Shown here piece after piece: positions 25,225 through 64,000 of a stretch of 64,000 bases of DNA. The stretch comes from Myxococcales bacterium (lineage in GTDB: Bacteria > Myxococcota_A > Polyangia > Palsa-1104 > JAEUJZ01), in the NCBI GenBank assembly GCA_016794505.1, contig JAEUJZ010000074.1:49061-113060 (forward strand). Reading direction: 5' to 3'. Numbering within the stretch: position 1 is the stretch's first letter; the number at the start of each line of letters is the position of its first letter. The notes below the pieces were generated by a model. It ran no database searches. It was not told the origin of the DNA and saw only the letters and a program-made list of their open reading frames with translations. Both the position numbers and the translations under genes were made by a program.

Positions 25225-25255
25225 CTCGCTCGGCTCCCAACGTGTCGTTTGCCCG

Positions 25256-43021: not shown

Positions 43022-43655
43022 GAGCGCCGTCGACCCTCTGCCAGCTGAAACCTGGCGCGAACAGATCGTCGAGTTTCACGATCAGCTCGTGCGTGAGCGC
43101 GGTGAAGGCTGGGGTGCATTCTGGGGCAGCCCAGCCTCGCAGCGCAGTCGGTACGAGATCTTCTTCCGCGAGCTGCCTCTTTCCGGCAGCGACGTCCTCG
43201 AAGTCGGCTGCGGCTTCGGCGATTTCCTACACATCGCGCGCGAGCGAAGTGCCCTGCCCCGTCGCTATCTCGGCGTCGATCTCAGCGATTCAATCATCGC
43301 CGCCGCACGGCGCAGCCACCCGCAGGCGGACTTCGCCGTCCTCGACCTCTTGGCCAGTGAGCCGCCGTTTCAGCCTGACTTCGTGATCGCCTCGGGCATC
43401 ATGGCCGTCGATGTTCCCGACTACGAAGCCTATGCCGTCGCCATCCTGCGGCGCTTTCATGGCCTGGCACGCCACGGCTTCGCGATCAACTTCCTTAGCA
43501 CCTGCAGCGACAAACCCGATGGGCGCAGCCGCTATGTCGATCCTGGCTGGCTACTCGGTGTGTTTCTGCGCCACGTCGACTGGCGCTGCCGCCTGCTGCA
43601 CGACTATCGCCAGAACGACTTCACGCTGGTTCATCTGCGCCCGCCGTCGCCGTAG
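43005..43655 (+). CDS. Class I SAM-dependent methyltransferase
   Basis: SAM motif I reads VLEVGCGFGDF. An acidic loop (LGVDLS) and motif-III-like segments are present. The gene overlaps the TPR gene's 3' end by 17 nt. Confidence 0.6.
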   Translation: MARLTKSAVDPLPAETWREQIVEFHDQLVRERGEGWGAFWGSPASQRSRYEIFFRELPLSGSDVLEVGCGFGDFLHIARERSALPRRYLGVDLSDSIIAAARRSHPQADFAVLDLLASEPPFQPDFVIASGIMAVDVPDYEAYAVAILRRFHGLARHGFAINFLSTCSDKPDGRSRYVDPGWLLGVFLRHVDWRCRLLHDYRQNDFTLVHLRPPSP

Positions 43656-44049
43656 CATCACCGTCGTGGAGTGCCCCAGACCGCGCCCGTGCTTCGCTCT
43701 GCCCCGTCAAGCGCTGCCCGCGGCTCTCGGTCGCGTGTGGGTCCTCGTGCCAGCGCATCAGCCGACGCAGCCACTCGCCATCGCGCTGCGCTTCGCGGAA
43801 TAGCTGCCGAGCCAAGGCCAGAAGGTGCTTGTGAACCCAGGCCGGCAGATCGCGTTCCGCGGCATACGCGTCAGCCCCCGGCGCAGAACGAATCTGACAT
43901 CGACCGTCGCTGCGATCGACCTGTAGCGCGCAGCGCAGCGTCTGGGTCGGCAGATAGATCGTTACGGCGTACATCACCGATACCGCATCGACTGCCTGCC
44001 GCAGCATCTCGAAGCGAGCCCCAAACGAAGGCGTCATGGCATGCACCAT
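43621..44049 (-). CDS. Hypothetical protein
   Basis: The ORF has protein-like composition. It sits between a convergent methyltransferase and alr. No recognisable motif was found. Confidence 0.35.
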   Translation of the reverse strand: MVHAMTPSFGARFEMLRQAVDAVSVMYAVTIYLPTQTLRCALQVDRSDGRCQIRSAPGADAYAAERDLPAWVHKHLLALARQLFREAQRDGEWLRRLMRWHEDPHATESRGQRLTGQSEARARSGALHDGDATATAGADEPA

Positions 44050-44099
44050 GGCCGCACCCTAGCACTGCCCGGCAGCCCGTAGGTCCCCCAATGCAGCGG

Positions 44100-45269
44100 C
44101 TATAGGCCTGTATAAATACGTGGGACACGCTTGGAGATCGCACAGCAGATCTCGTACGCGATTGTGCCCGCCCAGCCGGCCATCTCGTCGAGTGTGATCG
44201 GTGCATCCGCGACGCAATCCCGTCGAGCCTGGCCTCCGATCAGCACCACTTCGTCGCCGATCTGTACGTCGGGCACCGCGCTGACGTCGATCATCGTCAT
44301 GTCCATGGTGATCGGGCCCAGCACCGAGCAGCGTCGCCCGCCGCACAGCACCTGGGCCTGACCGCTCATGCGGCGGCTGTACCCATCGGCGTAGCCGATC
44401 GGCAGTGTGGCGATGCGAGCAGCGGCCTGGGTTCGCGTGCGACTGCCATAGCTGACGCCGGTATGGGCAGGCACCTCTCGTAGCGCGACGATGCGCGTCT
44501 TCAGCGACAAGACCGGCCACAGCCCAGAAAGAGCGGTATTCGGCGGTGCCACGCCATACAGGCCAATGCCCGGCCGCACCAGGTCCAGTCGCGCCGATCC
44601 AAAGCGCACGGCGCCCGCGGTGTTGGCTGCGTGCAAGACCCCCGGCTGAAGCCCCATCGCCGACAGGCGCTGCCGGCAGGCGAAGAAGCGCTCTAGCTGC
44701 TCATGGGTCGTCTCGTCCCCCGGACCGTCGGCATCAGCCAAGTGCGTACACAGCCCGCCAAGCGCCACACCGGGCTCGGCCCGCAGCACATCGACGAAGG
44801 CGTCCAGACTCTCGGGGCGAACGCCCAAGCGCGACATCCCGGTGTCGATCTTCAGATGAACTGGCACTCGCGGCGCTCCCAGGTCCGCCGCCGCCCGAGC
44901 AAAGCGCGAAAGGTCGCGGGCATCGGCCACAACCGGCGTCAGGCGATAGGCCACGACATCGCGATGCGACAGACCATAAAAGCAGCCCAGAACGACGATC
45001 GGTTGATCGATCAAGCCCGCCCGTCGAAGCTCAACGCCCTCTTCCACCAGCGAGACGGCGAAGCCCCAGACCTGGCGCGCCACCGCCTGCGCACACGGCA
45101 CCGCCCCATGGCCATAGGCATCGGCTTTGAGCACGGCCATGATACCCGTCCGCGACGGTGGATCCCCCGCCGCAGCGAAGAATGCATCGGACGAAGGATC
45201 GCCACCGTCAACGTGGGAACGCAGCACATCGACGTTGCGGCGCAGGGCTCCCAGGTCGATCTCGGCCAC
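44100..45269 (-). CDS. alr: Alanine racemase
   Basis: The N-terminus reads AEIDLGALRRNV. The PLP-lysine motif is AVLKADAYGHGA. The C-terminal Tyr-region is consistent with the fold-type III PLP enzyme. The apparent start is a GTG at 45269, and the upstream frame closes with a TGA 25 codons above it. Confidence 0.85.
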   Translation of the reverse strand: MAEIDLGALRRNVDVLRSHVDGGDPSSDAFFAAAGDPPSRTGIMAVLKADAYGHGAVPCAQAVARQVWGFAVSLVEEGVELRRAGLIDQPIVVLGCFYGLSHRDVVAYRLTPVVADARDLSRFARAAADLGAPRVPVHLKIDTGMSRLGVRPESLDAFVDVLRAEPGVALGGLCTHLADADGPGDETTHEQLERFFACRQRLSAMGLQPGVLHAANTAGAVRFGSARLDLVRPGIGLYGVAPPNTALSGLWPVLSLKTRIVALREVPAHTGVSYGSRTRTQAAARIATLPIGYADGYSRRMSGQAQVLCGGRRCSVLGPITMDMTMIDVSAVPDVQIGDEVVLIGGQARRDCVADAPITLDEMAGWAGTIAYEICCAISKRVPRIYTGL

Positions 45270-49427: not shown

Positions 49428-50024
49428 CTAAAAAAGCTGGAAGGCGCCGCCCACGGACAGCCCGACAAAGCCATAAACCGAGGGACCCGTGGAATATGTG
49501 AGATAGCTCAGCGCGACTTCGGGACCGACGGTCAATTCGTACTTGGGTTGGCGATAGGCGACGAAGTCCACGCCCAGATTGCCTTGTACTCCGGCGCGAT
49601 GGCGAATCCCGGTGCCAATGCCAAGCAGCGCGCCGCCTGGCTGTTCGGCCACAGCGGCAATCGACTCTTCGTGCTGATGGATAAACGATACGCTGATGCG
49701 GCCATATACTTTGGAAGACAGATAGCCGCCCCCCATAAGCCCAATAAGAATCGCCGTAAGCTGGCGCTCATCGATCCGCGCGTACCCGAGCCGCCCCTGC
49801 GCAAAGAGCGCAATCGTGCGGAATAGGCGCAAGCCCAGAAGCAGGCTGCCGGTACCTAGCGGATCGCCTTGCCACGTCGTACCTCCCGCCATGAGCCCGA
49901 CGGAAACAAGGAGCTGTCCGCGCGGTTTGCGCGGCGCGGGACTGGCAGGCGTTTCGGCGGCTTGCGGCGGAGGTGCAGGCGCGACCTCTGCCGGTGGATT
50001 CTGGATCGCGGGGTCAAGCTGCAT
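49428..50024 (-). CDS. Hypothetical outer-membrane beta-barrel-like protein
   Basis: The C-terminal half has alternating hydrophobic/Gly-rich strands and ends in an aromatic residue (GGAFQLF). The start is uncertain: MQLDP at 50024 versus the longer ORF-track start, which would run antisense through the FGE gene. Confidence 0.4.
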   Translation of the reverse strand: MQLDPAIQNPPAEVAPAPPPQAAETPASPAPRKPRGQLLVSVGLMAGGTTWQGDPLGTGSLLLGLRLFRTIALFAQGRLGYARIDERQLTAILIGLMGGGYLSSKVYGRISVSFIHQHEESIAAVAEQPGGALLGIGTGIRHRAGVQGNLGVDFVAYRQPKYELTVGPEVALSYLTYSTGPSVYGFVGLSVGGAFQLF

Positions 50025-50103
50025 GCCCGCAGGTATACGCCATAGACGCCGGAAAGGCCGCGACAGAAATTCGCCGATCCGTGGGGATAAAGTCGTGTGC
50101 CGC

Positions 50104-51009
50104 ATGCGCATCCCACGTAAGCCCAATGAGTCGCGCCGCGTTCGCTCTGAAGCCCCGCCCGAAACGCAGCGACCGCATGGCAAGATAGCGACCGTGCGTG
50201 TCCCCCGGAATTCCTCTGCCGCGCAGGCTGGCGAGCGGGCCATCGAGCTGGTCGATATCGACGCCGGCTCGGTGGTGCTGCGCGACGATCGCATCGGCCG
50301 CATCTGGCGCGTCGAGATCCAGCCCTTTCGCATCGCTCGATGCCCCGTCACCTGCGCGCAGTATCGCGAGCTCCTGGGCCTTGCGCCCTCGACCGACAAC
50401 GACGCCCAACCCCAGAAGGACAGCGACGCTCTGCCCGTCGTCGAGGTCTCGTGGTACGAGGCCATCGCCTTCTGCAACGCGCTGTCGGCTCAGTGCGGGC
50501 TGCCCCCCTGTTACACCCTCTCTGACGAGGGCACGCAGGTCACGTTTTCCACGGAAAGCGACGGCTATCGCTTGCCCAGCGAGGCCGAGTGGCAGTACGC
50601 CTGCCAAGCTGGCGACGAGCGCGTGCGCTATGGCGAGCTAGACGCCATCGCCTGGTACCGCGAAAACTCGGGCGGCCAGCGCCACCCCGTCGGGCAGAAG
50701 CAGCCCAACCGCTGGGGCCTGCACGACCTGCTCGGCAACGTCTGGGAGTGGTGCTGGGACCTGTACGATCCGCAGGTCTATGGCGAGTACCGCGTCTTTC
50801 GCGGGGGCGGCTGGGCAGACGCTCACTGGGGCTGCACCGCCGCCAGCCGACGTCGCAGCCATCCGACCTTCCGCATCGACGATCTCGGCTTCCGCCTGGC
50901 GCGCAGCGGGCCGGCCAGCCCGGCGCAGCGCAGCGCAGAAATCAGCGAAGCCAACGACGAGCCCAGCGAAGGAACGCGCCCACAACCGACCCGCAAGGCG
51001 AAGAGCTGA
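50104..51009 (+). CDS. Formylglycine-generating-enzyme (FGE-sulfatase/SUMF1) domain protein
   Basis: FGE signatures are present (RIARCPVTCAQYRELLG, LPSEAEWQYACQAG, GNVWEWCWDLY, RVFRGGGWAD, LGFRLAR). The start is set at MRIPRK (50104). Confidence 0.75.
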   Translation: MRIPRKPNESRRVRSEAPPETQRPHGKIATVRVPRNSSAAQAGERAIELVDIDAGSVVLRDDRIGRIWRVEIQPFRIARCPVTCAQYRELLGLAPSTDNDAQPQKDSDALPVVEVSWYEAIAFCNALSAQCGLPPCYTLSDEGTQVTFSTESDGYRLPSEAEWQYACQAGDERVRYGELDAIAWYRENSGGQRHPVGQKQPNRWGLHDLLGNVWEWCWDLYDPQVYGEYRVFRGGGWADAHWGCTAASRRRSHPTFRIDDLGFRLARSGPASPAQRSAEISEANDEPSEGTRPQPTRKAKS

Positions 51010-51090: not shown

Positions 51091-54000
51091 TCATCGGCTG
51101 GGCTTTGCGGAACGAGCCAGGACCGCCTCGGCTGCTCGCTGCGCCAGACACAGAACCTGATGTTCCAAGCGATGATTGCCGAGCAGGCGGTTGCAGTGCA
51201 TGTGAAACAGCGACGCCAAGATGTCGTGAAGCGGACGGCTCAGCGCCGATTGTGCGGCGGCGGCGTGATAGGTCGCGGCAACGCGCTGCACAGACTGCTC
51301 GTACGCCGCAAAGGCCGGGGCGATGTCTCGGTGGTGCAGACACGCCAGGTCTGGCGGCGGCGAGGCAGAGAGGCCCTCGCAGGAGCCCACGAGATCGTGA
51401 AGCGGCTTGGCATAGCGACGGTATGTCGCGTCCAGCGCGCTCTTGTGCAGCGGGTCGTGGGCCGAGCGCAGCGAACGATCAGCTTCGCGCTGTTCGCGCA
51501 GCGCCCAAAAGAGCTGCCGCCTCTGCGCCAGATCAAACCCAAAGGCGCGATACAGCGTGTGGAGTGCCCGCACCGGCACGAGGATCCGCACGTCCCGCTC
51601 GTGATCCAGCTGATCGCGGTAGTACGCGGCAAGCACGCGCAGGCACAAGCGACTGTCGGCGGTAAACAACTGCTCAGCGGCTGCGATCAGCGCCGGACCG
51701 CCATAGCGATCGACCTCTCGCTCGTACGTCGCGACCTCAAAGTGGGCCAGCGCACCGTCGTGTAGCTCGGCAGCGATGCGCTCGGACAGCCGATCCAGAA
51801 GCTGCAGGGACGACAGGCGGCAAGGACGCAGGCGCAGGCGCAAGTGGGCTTCGGGATCGGCATAGCGCACGAAGTGAAACTCGCTGAGCAGATCCTGCCG
51901 CTCGCACTCGTTGATCAGTCGCGCGACAAAGCGACCCAGAAGATGGTCATCGAAGAACGCTCGCGTCGCCTCTTCGCTGCCCAGCCCAGCACCGTAATAC
52001 AGCTTCAGGTACAGCCACGGCGAGCCCGGCGGAAAGACGTGGGCCTTGCGCAGCGCCGACGTCTCGCAGAGCCCACCTGACGGCGGCCAGGTGCTGAATG
52101 CAGAAGCCGCAGCAGGGGTCGGCTCGGCCTGTGATCCCGACGCAGGCTTGCGAGCGCGGTTGGGATGCCTCTGCGCCCGGCCCGGCCCGGCATCCTCAGA
52201 CTGCGAGGGCAGGCGCAGCTGCACGACGGACTCTGCGACAAGCGGCCCGTCTGGACCGACGACGATGGAGCCTTCGTGCAGGAATTCTTCCTGAACCCAG
52301 AACCGCTGATCTTCGACCATGCTGGCCAGCTCGAATAGAGCCATGGGGCCGTCGAGATCCACGGCGTTGTGTTCCGCGTCTCCAAGCCGGACGATGCGCG
52401 GAACGCCGTAGCGCGCACGCCAGGCGGTGATCAGCGAGCGCAGCGCGACGTCGTCACGATCTTTGCGCGGCTGCGCCAGCACGTGCTGCAGGTTCGGTGG
52501 CAGAAACCAGCTCTGCGGTCGCAAGATGACGTCGCCGATGCAGATGCGCGCCGTGCGAGTCGGTAGCTGCTGGCTGTGGATGGGCAGCCCCCACACCATG
52601 CTCTGTGGGTCGAGAGCCTGCAGGACCTGGACAAGCGCAGAGAAGGCTTCCGGCACCAGCGCCGACCCCTGGCGCGCCACGACAGGCACACCGCGACGTT
52701 CCCAAAACAGCATGGGACCCAGCGGGCTCATGGTCACGCTCAGCTCAGAAATGGGAATCTGGAACTCGGCGGATACGCTGGGCTGGCCATCGGCCACGAT
52801 CTGATAGCGAAAGGTCATCGGGCGCTGGCTGAGATCACGCAAGCGGCCCCCACCCCCGCTGGTGATCTCAGCGAGGATGCAGGGGGCAAGATCCTGTTCT
52901 TGCTGTCGCCATAGATCGCGCTGCTGCCGCAGCATGGGGTCGTCGCGATCCCAGTGCAGAAAACGGTTTCCATATCGCCCCACCTGCGGCGTGAATCCCG
53001 AAGCAATCACGCGCGGCCGTCCCTTCAGTACCACGAAGCGCAGCATCCCTTCGACGATCGTCGGGCGCTGACTGAACGGCGGCACATGCTCGCGCAGTGC
53101 GTTGGCAAGATCAGAGAGCGGAAGCTCGATGTGTTCGAAGCCGTGCAGGTCGGCATCGAACAGCTTCTGCACCACGCAGCGATCCAACAGAGTCTGCTGT
53201 TGTGATGCAGTGGGCGCGAGCCGCTGTCCGTTGAAGAGTGGGCGCATATCGTCCAGGTTCCCGCCCTTGGCGATGCGAAAGACGACGTCCATAAGCGGCA
53301 GCCGACTGCCCATCGTGCCCTCGGCAAACAGGTCGCAGATGGCTGCGTAGTACGGCGAGCGCACGAGCTGCCACAAAAACGGCGTACGCGCGATGCAGTC
53401 GGCGACTTGTTGCACCAAGTCTGCGGGCAGTCCGCCTGCCTGAATGGACACGCGCAAGACCGCTTGCTGATTCGTGCCCGCGCGCAAGGCTTTGCTGCGT
53501 CCATCCGGTTGCTCGCTGCGAGTCGCAAGCCACGGGTGGCCCTCAAGGGCATCCCACGCACGATCAAACGAGGGATCAGCAACCGGCAGCGCACGATCCG
53601 TGATCTGAAGCAGAGCCTGACTGTCGGCTGCCAGCCCGGACAAAGCCGGCTCGCCTTCCGCCCACGCATGCAGCGTGCGTTCGGGACGCTCGCCAAGACT
53701 TGCAGGCTGCAAGCTGTCGAGCAAGACGCCGCTTTCGAGAAGATCCAAGACATACGCATCCGCGGTTTCGCGAGTCGTGTCTGGGGCTTCGGACTGCAGA
53801 CGCTCTGTCAGCTCAGTCCAGCTCCAGACCTGGTTGGAAGCCGCGCGGGACAGGATGGCTCGCAGGGGCTTGTCGAGACGCAGACAAGCGACGCGGTAAC
53901 GCGGAGTCTGGGTCTTTAGTCCATCGGGTTGTTGATCGGTGAAGTAGCAGAGAACGCCGCCGCGCTGCATGGCGCTCTCGTTGAAGCGAAAGCGCATGCG

Positions 54001-54474
54001 CTCGCGCACTGCGGAGTGCTTGACGAGGTCGCGCGTGATGGCCAGCACGCTTCCCCACGAAGGCATGACATGCACGCGAGCCTCGGCGATCGGCGCGATG
54101 CGAAGCTGCGTGAAGGGCCCGAGGGTCGCCGCAGCGATTCCGGCAAGAAGCTGCAGCGGCGTGCTGCGCGTGGTGACGCGTGCGAAATACCGATGCAACG
54201 TGATCAGAAGATCTTCGCTGAGTGGCAGTCCGCTCACGATCTGGCGCTGCATCGCAGCCCACATCGCCGGGCTCTTCGCACGCAGCGCGCGGCGCAGGAG
54301 CGGTGACTGAAAGAAGTGCATCAAGTCCTGCTGCCAGTCGCTTGACTGCGAAAGCGACAGAAAGCGTGCGGACGAAGCAAGCGGCACCCGCAGCAGAGCA
54401 ACCGGCAGAACGCTGGCCTGCTGCGATGGCTTCGCAGCCAGCGGATCCGCCCCAGGCTCAACGCGCCGCTTCAT
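51091..54474 (-). CDS. Full-length LanB-type (class I lanthipeptide) dehydratase
   Basis: The roughly 1127-aa protein has a large N-terminal Lant_dehydr_N-like region. The C-terminal SpaB_C/thiopeptide-type elimination domain signature is present (WLYLKLYYGAG...FHFVRYADPEAHLRLRLRP). An RBS (GCAGGAGcgagcgATG) lies upstream of MKRR (54474). Confidence 0.8.
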   Translation of the reverse strand: MKRRVEPGADPLAAKPSQQASVLPVALLRVPLASSARFLSLSQSSDWQQDLMHFFQSPLLRRALRAKSPAMWAAMQRQIVSGLPLSEDLLITLHRYFARVTTRSTPLQLLAGIAAATLGPFTQLRIAPIAEARVHVMPSWGSVLAITRDLVKHSAVRERMRFRFNESAMQRGGVLCYFTDQQPDGLKTQTPRYRVACLRLDKPLRAILSRAASNQVWSWTELTERLQSEAPDTTRETADAYVLDLLESGVLLDSLQPASLGERPERTLHAWAEGEPALSGLAADSQALLQITDRALPVADPSFDRAWDALEGHPWLATRSEQPDGRSKALRAGTNQQAVLRVSIQAGGLPADLVQQVADCIARTPFLWQLVRSPYYAAICDLFAEGTMGSRLPLMDVVFRIAKGGNLDDMRPLFNGQRLAPTASQQQTLLDRCVVQKLFDADLHGFEHIELPLSDLANALREHVPPFSQRPTIVEGMLRFVVLKGRPRVIASGFTPQVGRYGNRFLHWDRDDPMLRQQRDLWRQQEQDLAPCILAEITSGGGGRLRDLSQRPMTFRYQIVADGQPSVSAEFQIPISELSVTMSPLGPMLFWERRGVPVVARQGSALVPEAFSALVQVLQALDPQSMVWGLPIHSQQLPTRTARICIGDVILRPQSWFLPPNLQHVLAQPRKDRDDVALRSLITAWRARYGVPRIVRLGDAEHNAVDLDGPMALFELASMVEDQRFWVQEEFLHEGSIVVGPDGPLVAESVVQLRLPSQSEDAGPGRAQRHPNRARKPASGSQAEPTPAAASAFSTWPPSGGLCETSALRKAHVFPPGSPWLYLKLYYGAGLGSEEATRAFFDDHLLGRFVARLINECERQDLLSEFHFVRYADPEAHLRLRLRPCRLSSLQLLDRLSERIAAELHDGALAHFEVATYEREVDRYGGPALIAAAEQLFTADSRLCLRVLAAYYRDQLDHERDVRILVPVRALHTLYRAFGFDLAQRRQLFWALREQREADRSLRSAHDPLHKSALDATYRRYAKPLHDLVGSCEGLSASPPPDLACLHHRDIAPAFAAYEQSVQRVAATYHAAAAQSALSRPLHDILASLFHMHCNRLLGNHRLEHQVLCLAQRAAEAVLARSAKPSR

Positions 54475-54687
54475 CGCTCGCTCCTGCACGTTGGGATGGC
54501 GTCGAGCGGACGACGTGGATGCCGAGCAAAAGCGAGAACAGGAAGACCCACGAAGCTCATGCGATCACGAACGGGATTGCAGAAAAAAACCGACATCATG
54601 AAGCGCTAGGTGGTGACGACAAGCACGGGCCTCAGGCAGCCGTGCCCTTCGGCCGAGGAGCAAAGAGAAGTCGCGGTCGACCGTGAC

Positions 54688-54912
54688 TCAGACGCTGTAT
54701 CCCTTGGTGGCGATTCGGCTCACCCCCAACACACCAGCCGCCTCGGCAGTAATGTTGCTGCCGGGAGCCACCTGGATCGCGTCGTAGTTCAGGTACAGCG
54801 AGTATCCGCCTTTGAGGTTCGTGCGGACCTTCAGACCGGTGTTTCCTTCGTCATCATCGTCAGCAACGTTTTCAGACTCAGGGTTCGGATTGGCAGTGGC
54901 TTGAGTATTCTG
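54688..54912 (-). CDS. Candidate RiPP precursor peptide (75 aa, Cys-free)
   Basis: A canonical RBS precedes the start (AAGGAGcgactATG). The codon usage is lower in GC than the flanking genes. The sequence is MQNTQATANPNPESENVADDDDEGNTGLKVRTNLKGG|YSLYLNYDAIQVAPGSNITAEAAGVLGVSRIATKGYSV. The leader is acidic and ends in a double-Gly-like KGG. The core is rich in Ser, Thr and Tyr and has no Cys. The ORF lies directly upstream of lanB and downstream of the export cassette. Confidence 0.5.
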   Translation of the reverse strand, partial: QNTQATANPNPESENVADDDDEGNTGLKVRTNLKGGYSLYLNYDAIQVAPGSNITAEAAGVLGVSRIATKGYSV

Positions 54913-55099
54913 CATAGTCGCTCCTTGGGTAGGAATGAACAGGCTTCGATCCAGAATGCCTTGTCCAGGATAGGACGCTGCGACTCGGATTCGTAGATGA
55001 TTTTCACGCGGATTTATCGTCGCTGAATAAGGAAATCGGAACGCAGGCTTAGCGCCGGCCCACCGACCCCAGATGCCCTGAACGAAGCGAGCGCAGGCG

Positions 55100-56335
55100 C
55101 TACTTAGGACGCACGTCCGATCGGTTTGCATCGGACTGCGACGACGAGCTGGCGGGTTCTTGGGCCAGGTGCTCAATGCGGCGACCCAAGCTGCGCAGGA
55201 CAAGCGTGGCGGGCGATACCTCTTCGACGGCGATCTCGACGGTACCGGGCAGTCCATGCTGGAACGGAATCAATGTGCGCGGATCGGACAGCGGGCTCGC
55301 TGAATGGGCCGGCAACAGATCCAGCTCGACGCGAACCGTGCCATCGCGTGGCTCGGCGGCGACTCGCGACACACGGGCCGGCACCGCACCATACTGCAGC
55401 CAAGGAAAGCCAGTCAGGCGAAGCTCGGCTCGCTGCTGTTCGCGCACGCGGCCGAGCGCGCTCGCCGGATCGAATTCCGCGACCAGAATGAAATCACCAC
55501 GCGGCAGCAGCGTCGCCAGCTTGCTGCCCTCAGAGACATATGCACCCACCTGCAGCGCCTGCACTTCACCGACGGTGCCGTCGGCTGGTGCGCGAATCGT
55601 ATGGCGAGCGATCTGCTGTTCAAGCTCGGCCACATTGGCCATCAGGGTGCGCTGCTCGCCTTGCAAAGAAGTCAGCTCGCGGCGCAGACCTTCGATCCGG
55701 GCTTCCCCGCTGCGCAGTCGCGTCTTGCGCTCGGTCAGCGAGCGTTTGACATCGAGTGACAGGGCCGCCGAGGACGCCTGTCGCATCTCGGCTGTGGCCA
55801 ACACGCGCTCCCTCTCCAACTGTGAAACAGCCCCAACCAGTGCGCCATAGCGCTGGGCTTCGCGCTCGGCCAGCTTGGCCCCGATGGCGGCCTCTTGACT
55901 GCGAGCTTTGGCCTGCTTGGCGGCTACTGCAGCAGCGGCTCCCTCGGCTTGCACCGCCCCGCGGGTCGCTCGCAGCTCACTCACCGTGGCTTGCACCTGT
56001 GGCTCGATGGCCTGCAGTCGCGCCTGCGCACTGGCGAGCCGCTGCTGCTCAACCAGTGAGTCGAGTACAAACAGCACATCCCCCTTCTTCACACTCTGCC
56101 CCAGTCGAATACTGACCGTGTCGATCTTTCCTGCGATGACCGAATGCACACTCAGCGATGCTCCGCGCACTTCCAGTCGCGTCTGCTTGCTGACTTCATA
56201 GATCGTCACGCGCGCCCCAAACAGCCACAGCGTCCACGCCAACGCCGCGACCAGCAGAGCAAGCAGACCCACGGCGGCCGCACGCCCGCTGTCCTTTTGC
56301 AGAGATCGCAGGGTATGGGGAAACGGCTGTGCCAT
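55100..56335 (-). CDS. HlyD-family periplasmic adaptor (membrane-fusion protein) of a peptide export system
   Basis: An N-terminal TM anchor (LLALLVAALAWTLWLF) is followed by a biotinyl/lipoyl-like hairpin (GKIDTVSIRLGQSVKKGDVLFVLD), a long coiled coil and a C-terminal beta domain. Confidence 0.8.
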   Translation of the reverse strand: MAQPFPHTLRSLQKDSGRAAAVGLLALLVAALAWTLWLFGARVTIYEVSKQTRLEVRGASLSVHSVIAGKIDTVSIRLGQSVKKGDVLFVLDSLVEQQRLASAQARLQAIEPQVQATVSELRATRGAVQAEGAAAAVAAKQAKARSQEAAIGAKLAEREAQRYGALVGAVSQLERERVLATAEMRQASSAALSLDVKRSLTERKTRLRSGEARIEGLRRELTSLQGEQRTLMANVAELEQQIARHTIRAPADGTVGEVQALQVGAYVSEGSKLATLLPRGDFILVAEFDPASALGRVREQQRAELRLTGFPWLQYGAVPARVSRVAAEPRDGTVRVELDLLPAHSASPLSDPRTLIPFQHGLPGTVEIAVEEVSPATLVLRSLGRRIEHLAQEPASSSSQSDANRSDVRPK

Positions 56336-56358
56336 GACGTATCGAAATCCGCTGAACG

Positions 56359-58440
56359 CTAGGGATGTGCAATCACAAGCAGGGTCGGGGCCCGCTCAAA
56401 CACGCAGCGCAGCGTCTGCGACAAGGTCTCTGGATCAAGAGCAGCGAAGCTCTCATCGAGCAAGATGACCTGCGCACGCTGCAAAAGTGTGCGCGCTATG
56501 TACACGCGGCTGCGCTCTCCATGTGACAGCTGCCAGCCCGTCTCGCCCACGTGGGTATGCAGGCCGCTAGGCATGCGCTGCAGCAGAGGGCCCAGGCCCA
56601 GATCTTCGCAGACCTTCTGCGCGTCTGCGAGATCGGCAGCCGAAGGCGGCCAGGCCCGCCCCAGAAGCAAGTTGAAAGCCAGCGACTGGCTGAACAGATG
56701 ATTTTCGTGAAACTGCGGAGCCGTTGACACCAGTCGCCGCCAAGCGCGCCCCCCAAGCGCTGACATGTCCAAGCCACCGAGCAGGATCTGTCCATTCTCT
56801 AGCGGCAGCAGGCCAGTCAAACACGAGGCCAAGGTGCTCTTGCCGCTGCCCGATGGGCCCTGCACGAGCAGCCGCTGCCCCGCGCGAATCCGCAGCGTCA
56901 GATCGCGAAGAGCAGGTGTCGCCCCCCCCTGGCTGTAGCGCACCGTCACTCGCCGAGCTTCGAGCACCACCGAGTCGCGAGCAAAGCTCGGCAATGCAGC
57001 CGTCAAGGGCAGCGGCTCAGGCGCGGCGGCACTGTGCAGCAGGTGCCGACAGCGGCGAAGTGCGATGGCGACCCCACCCAGTTGAGACAGCCCTGCGCCA
57101 AGCTTGCTGAGAGCCCGAAAAGCCAGCATGACGCCTCCCAGACCCAGGCCAAGCTGTGCCGTGTCCGTTCCGCCATCCAGCCAACGGGGGATCAGCGAGA
57201 TGAGACCCGCGCTCAGCCAGCCATACGGCAGCAAGCCGAACAGCGCCGCTGACCAGCCATCGAGGGTACGCCCCAGCCTGTGGTACTCGACCAAGGCCTC
57301 GTCTTCTCCGCGATGGCGCTGGGCCCGCGGCTCTTGCACCAGCCGCGTGCGATGCCCAAGCATCTTTTCCAGCAAGTCCCCCACCAAGTGAAAGCGCGAC
57401 TCGGTCCAGTGCTGCCGCGTGCGATACAGGCAATAGGAAACGACGCCGACCAGCACGACCCAGGCGAGCAAGGTCAGCGCACTTGCCGTCGAGACAAACA
57501 GCAAAATCGGCAGCGTTCCAAGGAGATCGAGAAGCGCCGAGCCGGCTGCGATACCTCCCGCACGTAGGCCGATCTCGACGGCCTCCGACTCGATGATTTG
57601 ACAGACAAAGTCGCCGTAGCCGCTCTGTCGGGCCGCATCCAACGGCAGTTTGACGGCCCCCCACAGCAGGCGACGCCGCAGCAGAATTCCGATAGAAATC
57701 GCGACCCGACCCAAGAGCCAACTTTCGATCAAGGCCACAGGCGGCATGGCCATCAGGATCAACAAAGCAGCCCACAGCCAGCCGCGATCGATGCGTCCGT
57801 CCAACGCTCCGCGACCGACCAAGTAGAGCAGCGACAGACCCAGCGCATACTGGGCCACATGCGCGAGGCTATAGCCCAGGATCTGCCGCGTCACACCCTG
57901 CTCACGCGCCAGCAGCAGAAGAGGCCGGCCCTGTCCCAAGCGCACCAGAAACATCCCAGGAATCGCCAACCCACCCAACCGCCGCCGCAAAATCTCACGC
58001 GCGGCATGTACACGTCGGTCCCCTTCACCAATCCCCGTCTCGGTAAGGAGTGCCTCGATTTCGGGCAGCAGGGGGGCGAAGGAGGGTTGAGTGAGTGCGT
58101 CGACAATGAGCGAGATCTGGATCCATGTCTGCGCTCCGTCGGGGGAAAGGATCTGCAGGCGCTCACCGCGGCCACGCAGCACGACCAAGATGCCCTCTTT
58201 GGGCACGCGAAGCAGAAGCAGCGCGGGTGGGGCCTGCCGAAGCTGAGCATCTAGCTCGGCGAGCTGTAGCAAGACCGGATCCGCTTCCAAGCCGTAGTGC
58301 TTTGCGACCGCATCCATGAAGTCACTCAGGCTGCCGGGCGTTCCCTCAGGACTCTGCCCCGTCAATCCATGCGGCGGTGGTGGGGGCGAGGTGCTGGATG
58401 ACACGTGCCAACCAGACAACCGAGCCAGTGCGCGCATGGC
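56359..58440 (-). CDS. ABC exporter (fused TMD-NBD) with a non-catalytic N-terminal extension, the second ABC of a three-part RiPP/bacteriocin export cassette
   Basis: An N-terminal domain of about 150 aa has no catalytic Cys. A 6-TM domain follows. The C-terminal NBD carries Walker A (GPSGSGKST), signature (LSHGERSRV) and Walker B (ILLDESFAALD). The start is chosen at MRALARL (58440), downstream of the PCAT stop. Confidence 0.75.
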   Translation of the reverse strand, partial: AMRALARLSGWHVSSSTSPPPPPHGLTGQSPEGTPGSLSDFMDAVAKHYGLEADPVLLQLAELDAQLRQAPPALLLLRVPKEGILVVLRGRGERLQILSPDGAQTWIQISLIVDALTQPSFAPLLPEIEALLTETGIGEGDRRVHAAREILRRRLGGLAIPGMFLVRLGQGRPLLLLAREQGVTRQILGYSLAHVAQYALGLSLLYLVGRGALDGRIDRGWLWAALLILMAMPPVALIESWLLGRVAISIGILLRRRLLWGAVKLPLDAARQSGYGDFVCQIIESEAVEIGLRAGGIAAGSALLDLLGTLPILLFVSTASALTLLAWVVLVGVVSYCLYRTRQHWTESRFHLVGDLLEKMLGHRTRLVQEPRAQRHRGEDEALVEYHRLGRTLDGWSAALFGLLPYGWLSAGLISLIPRWLDGGTDTAQLGLGLGGVMLAFRALSKLGAGLSQLGGVAIALRRCRHLLHSAAAPEPLPLTAALPSFARDSVVLEARRVTVRYSQGGATPALRDLTLRIRAGQRLLVQGPSGSGKSTLASCLTGLLPLENGQILLGGLDMSALGGRAWRRLVSTAPQFHENHLFSQSLAFNLLLGRAWPPSAADLADAQKVCEDLGLGPLLQRMPSGLHTHVGETGWQLSHGERSRVYIARTLLQRAQVILLDESFAALDPETLSQTLRCVFERAPTLLVIAHP

Positions 58441-58484
58441 GTCGGCAGCCTTGCGCAGCGGCCACAGGACAGATGCGAGATTGC

Positions 58485-61265
58485 TCACGACTCCTCCTGC
58501 GAGCCATCTCGTTCTTTCCCCGAGACGAGCTGACCATCCACCATCGCGATGCGCTGCCACTCTTTGGATGCCCACAAGTCATGACGAACCGCTTTTTCGG
58601 CGCGCAGCAGCTTGGCAAAGCGCGAGTCGGGTTTGTTGCTGAGCGAAAGCGGTGGCCCCGATTCCACGAGCGTTCCGTCTTCGATCACGACAACCAGCGG
58701 AAACGACAGCGTGGTTGCGATGTCGTGCGAGACATAGATCAGCGTCGTTCGTTCCCACTTCTTCCGCGTACGGTCGAGCAGTTCCTGTCGCTGCGTGCGA
58801 TCGAGTCCGCGGAATGGCTCATCCAGCAGAACCAGCTGCGGGGTCGACTGCAGCAGCGTACGTCCCAGGCGGACTCGCTGCCCTTCACCGCCCGACACCA
58901 AGCGCCCGCCTTCCCCAAGTGCCGTCGCCAAACCAGCCGGTAAGCGCCCCATGACCCGCGACAAGTCCGCGGTCGCGATGGCTTCGCTGAGAGCATCGAC
59001 ACGGTCGCTGGCCTGGCCATAGTGCAAGTTGTCGAACAGCGAGCGGTTCCACAGCCGGATGTCTGGGTCGACCCATGCGACCTGGCTGCGTAGCTGCACC
59101 AGCTCTTCGTTGCTGACTTCGATCCCATTGATTCGCAGCGTGCCGCTTGCTGCACGATGAAACCCTAAAAGAAGGCCGATCAACGTCGACTTCCCCGCTC
59201 CAGAAACTCCTACGACGGCCACGTGCGTGCCGGCTGCGATGTCCAGGTTCACCCCTTTGAGCACCGGTCTTCCCGAAAGGACCACCGACACATCGCGCAG
59301 GCTGATGGAAATCGTCTTGGCCTCGCGCACGGTCAGCACCGATGCAGAGTCTTCTTCCGATTCGGCGGGTGCTCCCAGTGGCTCGATCAAGCGCATGGTT
59401 ACGTTGCGCAAGTCGGGATACTGCTGCAGCGACTGCGCCAGCTCGCCCGCGTTCCCCGGTAGAGCCATCGCCCAGTAGTACAAAAGCAGCAAGCCGGCTG
59501 CATCGCCGCCTCGGTCGAGATAGCGCGCGATGATCCAGACGATGAACAAATAACCGATGATCACTTGCACGCCCTGCGCGCTGACTTGGGCTCGCAGCCA
59601 GTCCAGTCGCACCCGTGCCCAGTGCGTCAGAACTTCTTCTTGATCGCGGACCAGTGTGCGCTCGGCTCCATGCGTTCGCGTTGGCGAAAGACCGATCAGG
59701 GCATCGAGATACGAGCGCATCAGCGTGCCGGCATACGTGCGCAGTCGCATGTCCAAACCGATGAGCCAGGGCTGAATCAAAAACGACATGCCAAGGACAC
59801 TCAACAGAAGCGAAAACACCAGCAGACGCTCTTGTGGCGCCACCCAAAACAAGGCTGCGGCCGTCAACGTCGTCATGGCCACTGAGCGCATCACGTCGAC
59901 GAATAGCTGCGGCAGCTGACGGACACGCGCAATGCTGTGCGCACGCTCGGTCATGTCTGAGATTGGCCGACTGTGAAAATAGTGATCGTTCAAGCGAGGT
60001 AGCTTGGCGAGCAAGGCGCTGCGCAGCTTGATCTCTAGGTAGCGGCCGACGCGCGTGATGTTCCACTGGGTGACGAGGACCAGCCCAAAAAGACCGCTCG
60101 CAAAAGCCACCACCAAGAGCGGGGCCATCAAGCGCTGGGTCGGAGATCGGACGAAACCGAGCACATGCAGCATGCTGCGGAACAGAGCATCCAGCTCGAC
60201 TTGTAGGGCTGCCGCCACGGCTGCCGCCGCCATCGCCAACGCCAGCAGACCTAGCTGCGTTCGCGGCAAGAGCCGGAACATGCTGCGCAGTGGACGCAAA
60301 GGAGCCTCGACCAGCGCGGCCCGCAGATCCGCGGGTAGGGCCGCCACGCGCTGTGCCTGCTGCTGAACGTCTTCCACGCGTCGACCTCGGATGGCAACCA
60401 AGACAGCGCCGCGAAGCAGCACTTGCTCCACCTGTGCAGTCACTGGCGCTTCGCCGGCAAGCGGGCGCACCGTCCAGTATGAGTCAGGGATCTGCGCCGC
60501 ATCGCGATGTGCGGCCAGTGCCTCGACGAAGCGACCGGCCTCTGCGCCAGAGCTGACGGCACGTGTCGCGATGAGATCAGACGCCATACGCACTGCGGCA
60601 TCCAGCTGAGCCCACGCTTGCCAAGAACCCTGACTGCGAGGACTCTGCAACAGACGCTGCTCGACCGCCTGCGGAATCCCCAACTGACGCATCCGCGTGG
60701 TCAGAGCGCGCGTGAACGCGTTGCCGCCCAGCCACTTGCGAATCGCGGCCACAGGCACCGGCTGCGTGTGAACGAACAAGCGCTGCAGAAAGCGTGCGCT
60801 GTGCTGCCAGTGACGGCCTGTGGCTGGATCCATGACTTGCACAAACTCGCCGTCGAGCCGCCAACACACGACGAAGTGCGGGACCCCATTTTCATGCCGC
60901 ACCACGGCGATCGCGGGCAGGTTCTTGCGTACGTCGAGCAGGATGTGATCGCCTGGAATAACCATCTGTTCGGCGACGAGACCAAGCCGCGCAGCCATGT
61001 CTTGCAGTGTGTCGATCGAGGTTCCATCGACCTCGGTCTGACACGCTTCGCGCAGGCGGCCATAGCTTGCGCCGATCCCCAGGCCGTTGAGCAGGGCGGA
61101 CAAAGCAGCCGGCCCGCAGTCCATCGAAGAGGTCTGGATGACTTCGGGAATCAGGAACCGCCGTCCGCCTTGGCTGGTCCACTGTTTTCGCCACTTCCTA
61201 ACTTCGGCGGTGAGCATCCTAACGGGCCATTCCGATTCACTGCATGCTCTCGGGCAGGCGCGCAC
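58485..61265 (-). CDS. Peptidase-containing ABC transporter (C39 peptidase + TMD + NBD; LanT/PCAT type)
   Basis: The N-terminal C39 double-glycine peptidase domain has its catalytic Cys in IPEVIQTSSMDCGPAAL. A 6-TM ABC membrane domain follows. The NBD carries Walker A (GVSGAGKST), signature (LSGGEGQRVRL) and Walker B (VLLDEPFRGLD). The true start may be MLTAEV at 61217. Confidence 0.85.
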   Translation of the reverse strand: MRACPRACSESEWPVRMLTAEVRKWRKQWTSQGGRRFLIPEVIQTSSMDCGPAALSALLNGLGIGASYGRLREACQTEVDGTSIDTLQDMAARLGLVAEQMVIPGDHILLDVRKNLPAIAVVRHENGVPHFVVCWRLDGEFVQVMDPATGRHWQHSARFLQRLFVHTQPVPVAAIRKWLGGNAFTRALTTRMRQLGIPQAVEQRLLQSPRSQGSWQAWAQLDAAVRMASDLIATRAVSSGAEAGRFVEALAAHRDAAQIPDSYWTVRPLAGEAPVTAQVEQVLLRGAVLVAIRGRRVEDVQQQAQRVAALPADLRAALVEAPLRPLRSMFRLLPRTQLGLLALAMAAAAVAAALQVELDALFRSMLHVLGFVRSPTQRLMAPLLVVAFASGLFGLVLVTQWNITRVGRYLEIKLRSALLAKLPRLNDHYFHSRPISDMTERAHSIARVRQLPQLFVDVMRSVAMTTLTAAALFWVAPQERLLVFSLLLSVLGMSFLIQPWLIGLDMRLRTYAGTLMRSYLDALIGLSPTRTHGAERTLVRDQEEVLTHWARVRLDWLRAQVSAQGVQVIIGYLFIVWIIARYLDRGGDAAGLLLLYYWAMALPGNAGELAQSLQQYPDLRNVTMRLIEPLGAPAESEEDSASVLTVREAKTISISLRDVSVVLSGRPVLKGVNLDIAAGTHVAVVGVSGAGKSTLIGLLLGFHRAASGTLRINGIEVSNEELVQLRSQVAWVDPDIRLWNRSLFDNLHYGQASDRVDALSEAIATADLSRVMGRLPAGLATALGEGGRLVSGGEGQRVRLGRTLLQSTPQLVLLDEPFRGLDRTQRQELLDRTRKKWERTTLIYVSHDIATTLSFPLVVVIEDGTLVESGPPLSLSNKPDSRFAKLLRAEKAVRHDLWASKEWQRIAMVDGQLVSGKERDGSQEES

Positions 61266-61441
61266 ACCCTACGCTGAGCCGCAGGTCATTTTATCACCCC
61301 AGGCAGCGCGCAAGATATCTCTGCAGAGGCGCCCATCCATCCCTCTGAATCGCTGGTGCAGCGTGCAGACCGCGATGCAGCGCCACACCGCGTTTCATGA
61401 TTGTTGTTCGGCGGATCCGTGGCATCAGAGATAATGGCTTC

Positions 61442-64000
61442 ATGGGGAAGCCTGAGGCTGCGTCGCAAGAAGCTGCCGATGAGCTGACTGGTGGCAGCAC
61501 GGCCCCAGAGCGGACGCGTCAGCAGATGGACGACTCGCATGTGAAAGACCCCGCACGCGCGCTCGACGAAGACGACAGCGATCAGTTCCAGACTGTAGAC
61601 ACGCCCAGCGCACGCTCGGCCTCGGCGTCCGCGCTGGCTGGCATCGTCGGTAGCGGTTCGATCGATGGCATCCCATCAAACCGCAGCGGACCGGTGCGTC
61701 CTGTGCCGATCAGCCAGCCGGCCATGCCAAGCAACGGCGCAAACAGCGGACCCAGCGACCCCGGAAGCTTCCCTGTTGCAAAGTGGGATCGCTATGACTT
61801 CCTCAGCCTGCTCGGTCAGGGGGGCATGGGCGCTGTGTATAAGGCGCGCGACCGTCGGTTGCGTCGCTTGGTGGCGTTGAAGTTCATCCGCGGCGGTGAT
61901 GAGCGACTGACGCAGCGTTTCATGCAAGAGGCGCGGGCCCAATCGCGTATCGATCACCCCGGCATCTGCAAAGTGCTGGAAGTCGGCGAGGTCGAGGGCA
62001 AGGCCTACATCGCCATGCAGTTCGTCGATGGCAAGTCGCTGCAGCAAGCCAAGAGCGAGCTGTCGATGCTCGACAAGGTCAGCGTCGTCAAGGCCGCCGC
62101 CGAAGCTCTGCATGCCGCCCATGAGCTCGGCATCATTCACCGCGACATCAAGCCCGCCAACATCATGATCGAGCGGCACGCCGACGGGAAATACTACCCA
62201 GTGATCATGGACTTCGGGTTGGCCCGCGACACCACCGAAAACACCGGCATGACCGAGTCGGGAACCGTGATGGGAACGGCCGCGTTCATGTCGCCGGAGC
62301 AAGCGCGCGGTCATGCCAAGTCCTTGGATCGGCGCACCGACGTGTACAGCCTTGGGGCCACGCTGTTTGATCTGCTGGCCGGGCGACCGCCGTTTCTGGC
62401 CGAGAGCATGGCTGACACGTTGATGCGGGTCATGCTGGATGATGCGCCGCCGCTGCGCAGCCTGGCACCCAATGTGCCTGAGGCGCTTGAAATTATCGTC
62501 GGAAAATCGCTGAACAAAGAGCCGGCGCAGCGCTATGCCACGGCCCAGGACTTTGCTGAAGATCTGCATCGCTTCTTGGAAAAGCGACGCATCATCGGCA
62601 AGCGTCTGAGCCTGTACTACCGCCTGCGCTACAAGGCGCAGCGCAACAAGCCGGCCGCCGTCATTCTGACGATCCTGCTGCTCACGCTGGTCGCGATGAT
62701 CGGATACGGCATTCGACTGCGCATTCAGGCCGCCCAGCGCGAGCGACAAGCCCGACAGCAAGCCGAGCTAGCACAGCGACTCGGACAAGAGATCAAAGAC
62801 ATGGAGTGGATGCTGCGCAGCGCACGGCAGCTTCCGCTTCACAACCTGGATCGCGAAAAGAAGATTATGCGCCAGCGCATCGAGCAGCTACAGCTCGACC
62901 TGACAGGATACGGCGAGCTTGCACGCGGGCTTGCCCACTATGCGCTGGGTCGCGCGCACACCGCTTTGCATGAGTATCCCGCCGCGCTAGAGCAGCTTCG
63001 CTTGTCGATCGCCGTCGGGAACGAGCGCCCTGAGGTGCTGTATTCCTTGGGCTATGTGCTCGGCAAACACTATGAGCAGGCCATGGCCGACGCACGCTTG
63101 GCTGGGGGCGGCGACTTCGCGAAGAAGCAGCTTAAGCAGATCGAGCCCACGTATCTATTGCCAGCCATTGATGCACTGCAGCGCAGCCGAGCGGTAAAGC
63201 TCGACGCAGCGGCGTACCTGGACGGGCTGATTGCGTATTACCAAGGCGACTATGAAAGCGCGATCCGACGAGCCAACGAGGCGCTGCTGGCGGCGCCATG
63301 GCTGTATGAAGCGCACAAGCTGATCGGTGATGTGCAGCTGCAGCGCGGGCTGCGGGCTGTCGATCGCGCGCAGTTCCCCGAGGCCGAGGTACACCTTGCC
63401 GCCGCCGTATCGAGTTTCGAGCAAGCGGCCCACATTGGGCAGAGCGATGCCGAGGTCTACGAGGCGTTGGCCGATGCCTGGATCCAGCGCATGGCCGTCG
63501 CGCAGCAGCAGCAGCAGCGCCCTGCGGTGCAGGCGGGCTATGCCGCAGTGCTCGCGATCAGTGACAAGATTCGCACCACCGAGCCAGGCAGCATCATGGG
63601 CCCGCTGAAGCACGCGCAAGCTCTGGCTTGGCGGATCACCGCCGAGGATCCCAACGATGACATCCCAGATCTGGCAACGCAGTGCCAGGTCCAAGCAAAG
63701 CGCGTCTTGGCGATGCAAGCGCAGCATCCATACGCCAGCAACTTGCTTTCTACGTGCATCGCGCTCATGGGGACCTTGGCCTTCGCCAAACGACAAGAGG
63801 CCGAGCCGTGGTTCCACAAATCGATCGCTGCGCTGGAGCCGATCCTGGAAAAGACGCCGTACTTTTTGGATGGCTTCCGCAACCTGGCGATGCACTATCG
63901 CGATCTGGCGCGGCATGCTCAGCGACGAGGCGGAAACGATCAGCGCCTGTTTTTGACGAAGTCTCTAGAGAACTTTGGCCGCGCGCTGGCGCTTGACCCC
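61442..64000 (+). CDS. Ser/Thr protein kinase with a transmembrane segment and a long TPR-like C-terminal domain (3' end beyond the window)
   Basis: Kinase motifs are present (LGQGGMGAVYKA, ALKFI, HRDIKPANIM, DFGLAR, AAFMSPEQ). A TM helix (AAVILTILLLTLVAMIGYGI) and a helical repeat region follow. The gene is absent from the ORF track because it has no in-window stop. The start could be 61397 or 61442. Confidence 0.75.
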   Translation, partial: MGKPEAASQEAADELTGGSTAPERTRQQMDDSHVKDPARALDEDDSDQFQTVDTPSARSASASALAGIVGSGSIDGIPSNRSGPVRPVPISQPAMPSNGANSGPSDPGSFPVAKWDRYDFLSLLGQGGMGAVYKARDRRLRRLVALKFIRGGDERLTQRFMQEARAQSRIDHPGICKVLEVGEVEGKAYIAMQFVDGKSLQQAKSELSMLDKVSVVKAAAEALHAAHELGIIHRDIKPANIMIERHADGKYYPVIMDFGLARDTTENTGMTESGTVMGTAAFMSPEQARGHAKSLDRRTDVYSLGATLFDLLAGRPPFLAESMADTLMRVMLDDAPPLRSLAPNVPEALEIIVGKSLNKEPAQRYATAQDFAEDLHRFLEKRRIIGKRLSLYYRLRYKAQRNKPAAVILTILLLTLVAMIGYGIRLRIQAAQRERQARQQAELAQRLGQEIKDMEWMLRSARQLPLHNLDREKKIMRQRIEQLQLDLTGYGELARGLAHYALGRAHTALHEYPAALEQLRLSIAVGNERPEVLYSLGYVLGKHYEQAMADARLAGGGDFAKKQLKQIEPTYLLPAIDALQRSRAVKLDAAAYLDGLIAYYQGDYESAIRRANEALLAAPWLYEAHKLIGDVQLQRGLRAVDRAQFPEAEVHLAAAVSSFEQAAHIGQSDAEVYEALADAWIQRMAVAQQQQQRPAVQAGYAAVLAISDKIRTTEPGSIMGPLKHAQALAWRITAEDPNDDIPDLATQCQVQAKRVLAMQAQHPYASNLLSTCIALMGTLAFAKRQEAEPWFHKSIAALEPILEKTPYFLDGFRNLAMHYRDLARHAQRRGGNDQRLFLTKSLENFGRALALDP

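Follow-up and report, generated by a model that had tools for sequence, protein, structure and literature searches.

A 64,000-nucleotide stretch of a Myxococcales genome (the whole stretch is hereafter called the window) carries, on the minus strand between positions 51091 and 61265, a gene cluster for a peptide that is made by ribosomes and modified after translation (RiPP), in which a full-length LanB-type dehydratase would dehydrate a cysteine-free precursor core and the product would be cleaved and exported by the adjoining transport genes. We put the probability of this reading, a dehydrated ribosomal peptide that is not a lanthipeptide, at roughly 0.7. Because the precursor cores contain no Cys and no ring-forming cyclase was found, its product is probably no lantibiotic but a modified peptide of a kind not described so far.

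Organization of the cluster

The five co-directional minus-strand genes named in the original prediction, which was made from the letters of the window alone, are all present, and their codon-position GC follows the pattern of real genes. That prediction is largely borne out but drew the limits too tight: seven genes make up the cluster, five and a half of them inside the window, the members beyond the first five being a Ser/Thr kinase gene that runs past the right end and a gene for a 286-aa protein with an aldo-keto-reductase (AKR) fold. The flanking formylglycine-generating enzyme (FGE) and kinase genes lie on the plus strand as first described, yet the kinase gene, then called unrelated, is co-conserved with the cluster. 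Likewise, the proposed "LanB-only" architecture stands insofar as no LanC or LanM was found, but is too strong as worded since the 286-aa gene also belongs to the unit; it was missed because in this genome it lies outside the window. Features are as follows (window numbering; ABC, ATP-binding cassette).

51091-54474 (-): lanB, full-length LanB-type dehydratase, 1127 aa; matches PF04738, PF14028 and TIGR03891
54688-54915 (-): precursor peptide gene, 75 aa; ribosome-binding site, conserved leader, 13 orthologous small open reading frames (ORFs)
54805-54915 (-): precursor leader, 37 aa, ending LKVRTNLKGG; delimited by conservation
54691-54804 (-): precursor core, 38 aa, YSLYLNYDAIQVAPGSNITAEAAGVLGVSRIATKGYSV, with six Ser/Thr and no Cys
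55100-56335 (-): HlyD-family periplasmic adaptor, 411 aa; HlyD_3, HlyD_D23 and Biotin_lipoyl_2 matches
56359-58488 (-): second ABC exporter subunit without an active peptidase domain, 709 aa; ABC_tran match only
58485-61217 (-): C39-peptidase ABC exporter (peptidase-containing ABC transporter, PCAT), 910 aa; Peptidase_C39 and ABC_tran
61218-61441 (no strand): divergent intergenic region between the exporter operon and the kinase gene, with presumed promoters, by position only
61442-64000 (+): membrane Ser/Thr kinase, 1146 aa, continuing past the window end to about 64882; Pkinase 4e-42
about 64917-65777 (outside the window): gene for the 286-aa AKR-fold protein, convergent to the kinase gene
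49816-51009 (+): FGE-sulfatase/SUMF1-family gene, convergent with lanB

The end of lanB at 54474 is the database start, giving 1127 aa; the mechanical ORF reaches 54489.

A complete LanB dehydratase of an isolated subfamily

The large ORF was read from the outset as a LanB with both glutamylation and elimination domains, and profile searches uphold this: it matches PF04738 (Lant_dehydr_N) at 6e-40 with 137.5 bits (cut-off 28) over profile positions 2-644 of 649, PF14028 (Lant_dehydr_C) at 6e-48 with 164.6 bits (cut-off 24.4) over positions 1-254 of 255, and TIGR03891 with 157 bits (cut-off 48). Alignment to NisB and MadB places the equivalents of NisB R83, R87 and T89 in RYFARVTTRSTP, those of R784/R786 in HLRLRL, those of E823/R826 in EVDRYGG and that of H961 in FHMHCNR, and these catalytic-residue equivalents are invariant in nine members of the LanB clade. 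The NisB R464 "GRF" motif probably corresponds to NRF (R504). A profile of the clade matches MibB and NisB as well as MadB (9g04), the last in both domains (1.5e-50).

An exhaustive phmmer search of 1.84 billion representatives returned a handful of close relatives above 600 bits with 43-50% identity, and the next full-length LanBs follow only at about 195 bits and about 30% identity, a gap by which the subfamily is isolated in sequence. The family is also rare, forming about five clusters at 50% identity among these representatives, all of them metagenomic. Between orthologous loci (labeled L001 and onwards), LanB identity is 42-57%, making it the fastest-evolving protein of the cluster.

Two further loci bear on LanB. 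At L002, a run of N at about 12815-12940 splits the lanB ORF, an assembly gap and not a biological feature. L021:1-9424 (Logan SRR23073214, 71% GC) encodes a full-length LanB, P0004, with 25% identity, divergent from genes for an HlyD adaptor and an ABC protein; its 9.4 kb contain no LanC and no obvious precursor ORF. As this locus has no LanC, LanC-less LanB clusters with type-I-like exporters may extend beyond the clade.

A conserved leader followed by hypervariable, cysteine-free cores

The 75-aa ORF upstream of lanB has an AAGGAG ribosome-binding site at 54921-54926, 5 nt before its ATG at 54915, and was called too by an independent gene caller on another assembly. Thirteen distinct small ORFs occur directly upstream of orthologous lanB genes and share an acidic leader ending LK(V/I)R(T/S)NLK(A/G)G, past which the precursors are wholly divergent and non-alignable, bar a few sub-groups of related cores. 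At the DNA level the leader is the most conserved segment of the region: in comparison with the nearest relative (L014), identity is 78-85% in the leader and 33-50% in the core, with about 73% in hlyD and 60-70% at the 5' end of lanB. A conserved leader joined to a hypervariable core is the classical signature of a RiPP precursor, and by this sequence signature we regard the 75-aa ORF as a real precursor. No second ORF with the leader motif is present in the window. The leader ends in Gly-Gly in the window precursor and in Ala-Gly in the 12 other precursors, at the point where leader conservation ends.

Both earlier statements about this ORF, that it lacks Cys and that it accompanies LanB, extend to the orthologous loci: the small ORF co-occurs with the LanB orthologs, with the same division into conserved leader and hypervariable core, and Cys is absent from all 13 distinct variants. 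In the nine cores that were tallied (327 residues), Ser and Thr make up 21%, versus 10.7% in neighboring proteins, whereas Cys, Trp, Phe and His do not occur. The four further cores are likewise Cys-free, with Trp in one and Phe in two.

Between the precursor gene and lanB there is a single weak terminator-like match. An attenuator or terminator at this place was rejected, the RNA fold being no better than that of shuffled sequence (z = -0.05).

Two short loci carry the leader in other surroundings. At L020:1-1146 (-), an S-adenosylmethionine (SAM)-dependent methyltransferase-like ORF with a VLDLGCGSG motif, judged PRMT-like by eye, lies divergently upstream of a leader-bearing precursor (about 1130-1384), replacing the usual HlyD gene on a short contig. 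At L019:595-1149 (+), leader and core are fused in frame to a low-molecular-weight phosphatase/ArsC-like ORF (CTGNSCRS, by eye), probably an assembly chimera or a recombination junction.

No LanC cyclase is encoded with the cluster

To search for a cyclase, a LanC hidden Markov model (HMM) was built from nine ORFs that lie beside distant LanB genes, four of which were checked as PF05147. Over all six frames of the window its best E value was 0.66, and over the six-frame ORFs of the window and of the orthologous loci scanned (L001, L002, L013-L015, L021-L023, L025, L027-L030 and L033-L035) the best values were 0.66-0.76. The LanC zinc-ligand motif (C-x-G ... CHG), which adjoins LanB at all ten distant LanB loci retrieved (from Kitasatospora, Streptomyces, Parachlamydiales, Lactobacillus and Candidatus Cybelea), is found neither in the window nor at L001, L002 or L013. 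Altogether, the orthologous loci, about 200 kb in total, yielded no LanC.

The sequence beyond the right end of the window could be followed in L030, matched to the same genome by exact identity of the 910-aa exporter protein, and these roughly 10 kb contain no LanC, LanM or YcaO gene. YcaO-family genes are also absent from the Pfam gene tables of L013, L030 and L033-L035. The original prediction had reported no LanC in view, and this now holds, for LanM as for LanC, in the 64-kb window, in about 10 kb past its right end and at every orthologous locus. The sequence tests by which that prediction could have been refuted thus turned out in favor of it.

Other genes near the cluster were considered as tailoring genes and rejected: none of the FGE, MiaB-like radical-SAM and metallo-beta-lactamase (MBL)-fold genes is conserved at any other locus. 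The MiaB/RimO-like radical-SAM methylthiotransferase gene (UPF0004, Radical_SAM and TRAM; about 65872-67377, minus strand, L030:3841-5346) lies outside the window, immediately upstream of the 286-aa gene, a position that it has in no other genome here. For afa, a myxobacterial LanB/LanC gene cluster, a gene of the SUMF1/EgtB/PvdO family is listed as well (PMC11876861); the presence of a member of this family both there and beside lanB is probably coincidence, as the family is abundant in myxobacteria. Farther off, 6-10 kb beyond lanB, the window encodes at 40737-45269 (L013:12753-16931) an alanine racemase, a SAM methyltransferase, a 291-aa protein and a Trp-halogenase-like flavoprotein, none of them common to other loci; the 291-aa protein has no Pfam match on record, and the overlapping window ORF shows tetratricopeptide (TPR) repeats.

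Export module and proposed pathway

The PCAT, whose exact 910-aa product is on record, matches Peptidase_C39 (PF03412) at 5.8e-18 as well as ABC_tran, and its C39 residues Q28, C34, H114 and D130 have the canonical spacings of 6, 80 and 16. The second ABC protein (709 aa by the L030 gene call) gives an ABC_tran match and no C39 domain in a Pfam search, and is 64% identical to its L002 ortholog; the HlyD adaptor is 63-67% identical to its orthologs in L002 and L033-L035. The original prediction had likened the arrangement of these genes to that of the export trios of NHLP/Nif11-leader systems. The gene arrangement does match, but all three proteins score far below the curated cut-offs, with 49 bits for the HlyD adaptor against TIGR03794 (cut-off 156), 169 bits for the C39-ABC exporter against TIGR03796 (cut-off 853) and 101 bits for the second ABC protein against TIGR03797 (cut-off 709), and the precursor matches no NCBIfam or Pfam model of an NHLP or Nif11 leader. 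The exporters are thus analogous to these trios in arrangement, not members of them.

From these parts we infer the following pathway. LanB would recognize the 75-aa precursor through its conserved acidic leader, glutamylate core Ser/Thr with Glu-tRNA and eliminate glutamate to give dehydroalanine (Dha) and dehydrobutyrine (Dhb), as its intact domains and residues suggest. No thioether rings would form, because there is neither a cyclase nor a Cys. The PCAT would then remove the leader behind its last Gly and act with the second ABC protein and the HlyD adaptor to export the peptide. The AKR-fold protein is a candidate for further tailoring of the dehydrated peptide or for a partner of the kinase, and the receptor kinase, more speculatively, a candidate sensor of the peptide or of an envelope signal and regulator of the system.

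The seven genes stay together through rearrangement

More than 10 independent metagenomic loci carry this gene set, and therefore the arrangement is not due to chance. The carriers are uncultured Myxococcales and related metagenome-assembled genomes, among them the NCBI Myxococcales assembly with locus tag JNJ46_14595. A word-indexed protein search with LanB retrieved only two ortholog clusters, and further loci came through homologs of the 286-aa neighbor; a scan of JGI metagenomes with the LanB alignment found nothing, and a degenerate DNA pattern of the leader motif yielded three short contigs with precursors there. The contigs are mostly shorter than 25 kb; one locus lies on a 438-kb contig (JGI Ga0590115_0000049), of which ±10 kb around it was covered.

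At L002 and L033-L035 the gene order is PCAT, ABC, HlyD, precursor, LanB and the 286-aa protein, followed by the kinase on the opposite strand. In this genome the 286-aa gene and the kinase gene (opposite strand) come before PCAT, ABC, HlyD, precursor and LanB. Both the 286-aa gene, following lanB, and a kinase ortholog adjoining the cluster are found at L001, L002, L022, L027-L029 and L033-L035, and the kinase accompanies the cluster wherever a contig extends far enough to include its position. Within the window itself, only the precursor, LanB, the export trio and the Ser/Thr kinase are common to the other loci. The remaining flanks all differ, comprising FGE, major facilitator superfamily (MFS), MiaB-like radical-SAM and MBL genes here, and VWA/AAA, PHO4, amino-acid permease and short-chain dehydrogenase/reductase (SDR) genes elsewhere. 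That the seven genes remain together through rearrangement while their other flanks differ argues for a functional linkage.

A receptor-type kinase and a possible signaling role

In the kinase, the GxGxxG, HRDIKP and DFG motifs are intact, and a single transmembrane helix at about residues 403-425 precedes a C-terminal helical domain of about 700 aa with weak TPR matches; its sequence thus predicts a receptor-type architecture with a large extracytoplasmic domain. It is no class III/IV lanthipeptide synthetase (LanKC/LanL): it reaches 90 of the 650 bits required by NF038150 and 47 of the 575 bits required by NF038151, its best match is PknB-type and it has no LanC-like part. Identity between loci is 78-95% in the catalytic domain and 52-78% in the outside domain. 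The divergence rates of LanB and of the kinase domains fit co-evolution of enzyme and substrate, and possibly of sensor and ligand, but are not proof of it.

These features raise the tentative alternative that the peptide is not primarily an antibiotic but a strain-specific signal, which the kinase would detect with its extracytoplasmic domain and which would serve autoinduction or kin discrimination. A kinase domain that appears active-site-competent, joined through one transmembrane helix to an outside domain that diverges faster than the catalytic part alongside hypervariable cores, would suit such a receptor, as would its retention beside the cluster and the lack of an apparent dedicated immunity gene. 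However, myxobacteria encode very many Ser/Thr kinases, the linkage could stem from control of peptide production or from envelope-stress sensing, bacteriocins just as typically have hypervariable cores, and no response regulator or target is apparent.

At L001, the kinase ORF (7728-10499, minus strand) begins at Pkinase profile position 122, with the N-lobe outside the open frame, and a second partial kinase ORF lies at 10621-11508; a frameshift, gene decay or faulty assembly could explain the split. Elsewhere in the window are genes for a sigma-54 activator with a phospho-Thr-binding FHA domain (23752-25284, minus strand), a PP2C phosphatase (39826-40638, plus strand) and a second Ser/Thr kinase (17360-19399, minus strand), all typical myxobacterial phospho-signaling parts.

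A non-canonical AKR-fold protein and a possible reductive step

At most loci the 286-aa gene abuts the lanB stop, overlaps it or is fused to it. Its product stays below the threshold of every Pfam and NCBIfam model, yet an AlphaFold2 model (mean predicted confidence, pLDDT, 94.9) shows the (beta/alpha)8 TIM-barrel fold of aldo-keto reductases, and Foldseek matches it to NAD(P)H-dependent members of that family at E values of about 1e-12 (TM 0.6-0.7). SmbA, a non-enzymatic AKR-like ligand binder, is an equally good structural match. Where AKRtyl has the catalytic Asp, Tyr and Lys of AKRs, a profile alignment shows Phe, Leu and Ser in this protein. The protein thus appears to lack the canonical catalytic tetrad Asp-Tyr-Lys-His, a statement of moderate confidence because it comes from a sequence alignment, and a reading of the protein as a canonical AKR reductase is weakened accordingly. 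Remoter relatives in the family (about 60% identity) are found with neither LanB nor the kinase.

Reduction of Dha/Dhb is an established activity of LanJ enzymes, which have three unrelated folds, and dehydration could here be only an intermediate, the AKR-fold protein reducing Dha and Dhb to D-Ala and D-aminobutyrate in the manner of a LanJ with a new fold, to give a linear D-amino-acid peptide. The position of the gene at the lanB stop, its persistence with the cluster in this genome and the confident structural match to NAD(P)H-dependent reductases speak for such a step. We nevertheless consider it rather doubtful, given the substituted catalytic residues, the equal match to SmbA-type ligand binders and the distant relatives that occur without LanB; moreover, in this genome the gene travels with the kinase and not with LanB.

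Weighing the reading against its alternatives

Combining the preferred reading of a LanB-dehydrated, exported, Cys-free peptide with both lines above yields a broader proposal. It is possible, though speculative, that the cluster represents an undescribed RiPP class in which a dedicated LanB subfamily dehydrates hypervariable Cys-free peptides that remain linear with Dha/Dhb or are processed further by a non-canonical AKR-fold enzyme, and after export are read by a co-evolving receptor Ser/Thr kinase, that is, a polymorphic signaling or kin-discrimination system built in Myxococcota from lantibiotic machinery.

An ordinary class I lanthipeptide, with LanC and a Cys-containing LanA encoded elsewhere and the small ORF irrelevant or a decoy, is very unlikely. 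Unclustered RiPP genes are known, and the contigs are metagenomic and mostly short. Against this, LanC was not found at any of the more than 10 loci, including the 64 kb here and the roughly 10 kb beyond, and a LanC motif adjoins LanB at each of the ten distant loci retrieved; the small ORF is conserved in position, has the most conserved DNA in its leader and is Cys-free in 13 of 13 variants, and no other window ORF carries the leader motif. Still less credible is a LanB homolog that does not dehydrate and instead performs an aminoacylation like that of the peptide aminoacyl-tRNA ligases (PEARLs) or leaves a stable glutamyl ester: LanB-like enzymes have diverged to other chemistry (PEARLs; PMC12945691) and this clade is isolated and fast-evolving, but PEARLs have no elimination domain, PF14028 is complete here, which makes a PEARL-like role unlikely, and the equivalents of NisB R786, E823, R826 and H961 are invariant across the clade.

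Several points weigh against the preferred reading itself. The leader has no recognizable FNLD box, so that its recognition by LanB is only predicted, and the Ala-Gly of 12 precursors is an unusual C39 cleavage motif. Loci of the L001 type have no adjacent exporter genes, and the candidate tailoring protein does not align at the canonical AKR catalytic residues. As all loci come from metagenome assemblies, LanC or another enzyme may be encoded far away. Finally, the support comes from sequence and not from chemistry: it shows which genes are present and what domains they encode, that LanB catalytic residues and the division into leader and core are conserved, that LanC and Cys are absent and that the seven genes are kept together, whereas dehydration of the precursor, the site of cleavage and the roles of the AKR-fold protein and the kinase are predicted from it.

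Significance and comparison with known systems

In the full-text literature searched, which does not cover subscription journals, we found no description of a full-length LanB that has Cys-free precursors but lacks a cyclase. LanB is a textbook enzyme of lanthipeptide biosynthesis. Most mining pipelines are anchored on LanC or on Cys-rich precursors, and a Cys-free LanB family is therefore invisible to them; one lanthipeptide survey, for example, searched with PF05147 and was thus anchored on LanC (Walker et al. 2020, PMC7268733). If the preferred reading is right, the cluster would represent a LanB-made, lanthionine-free peptide family with a new leader type, would offer for peptide engineering a naturally cyclase-independent LanB with apparently broad core tolerance, and would tie a RiPP both to a receptor kinase of the eukaryotic type and to a non-canonical AKR-fold protein. 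These two links are testable leads to new chemistry or signaling in a phylum whose RiPPs are little explored.

The cluster resembles class I lanthipeptide clusters (NisB/NisC, MadB, MibB) in its full-length, two-domain Glu-tRNA-type LanB with conserved catalytic residues, in the leader-bearing precursor gene immediately upstream and in its dedicated exporter. Unlike them, it has no detected LanC, no core Cys and no FNLD box in the leader, its LanB is isolated at about 30% identity, and an AKR-fold protein and a receptor Ser/Thr kinase are co-conserved with it; with no LanC and no Cys in any core, no lanthionine is possible in this family. The export genes share with NHLP/Nif11 systems a C39-ABC protein, a second ABC protein without peptidase and an HlyD adaptor beside a precursor, here with a candidate Gly-Gly-type site, but differ in falling far below the family cut-offs and in serving a precursor without an NHLP/Nif11 leader match. 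As in the LanJ-dependent lanthipeptides (lacticin 3147, carnolysin, bicereucin and lexapeptide), the dehydratase may pair with a reductase-fold protein, although the aldo-keto-reductase fold lies outside the three known LanJ folds and the canonical catalytic residues are unaligned. LanB-type dehydration without lanthionine is known from thiopeptides, goadsporin and dehydrazoles (PMC10676384), in which, as predicted here, LanB chemistry installs Dha/Dhb that are not consumed by Cys addition; those systems use a split LanB with a YcaO/cyclodehydratase on cores rich in Cys, Ser and Thr, whereas the present one has a single full-length LanB and no Cys. In its expected product, a linear, dehydrated ribosomal peptide without lanthionine, the cluster comes closest in kind to the linaridins (cypemycin family). 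Linaridin dehydration is carried out by enzymes unrelated to LanB.

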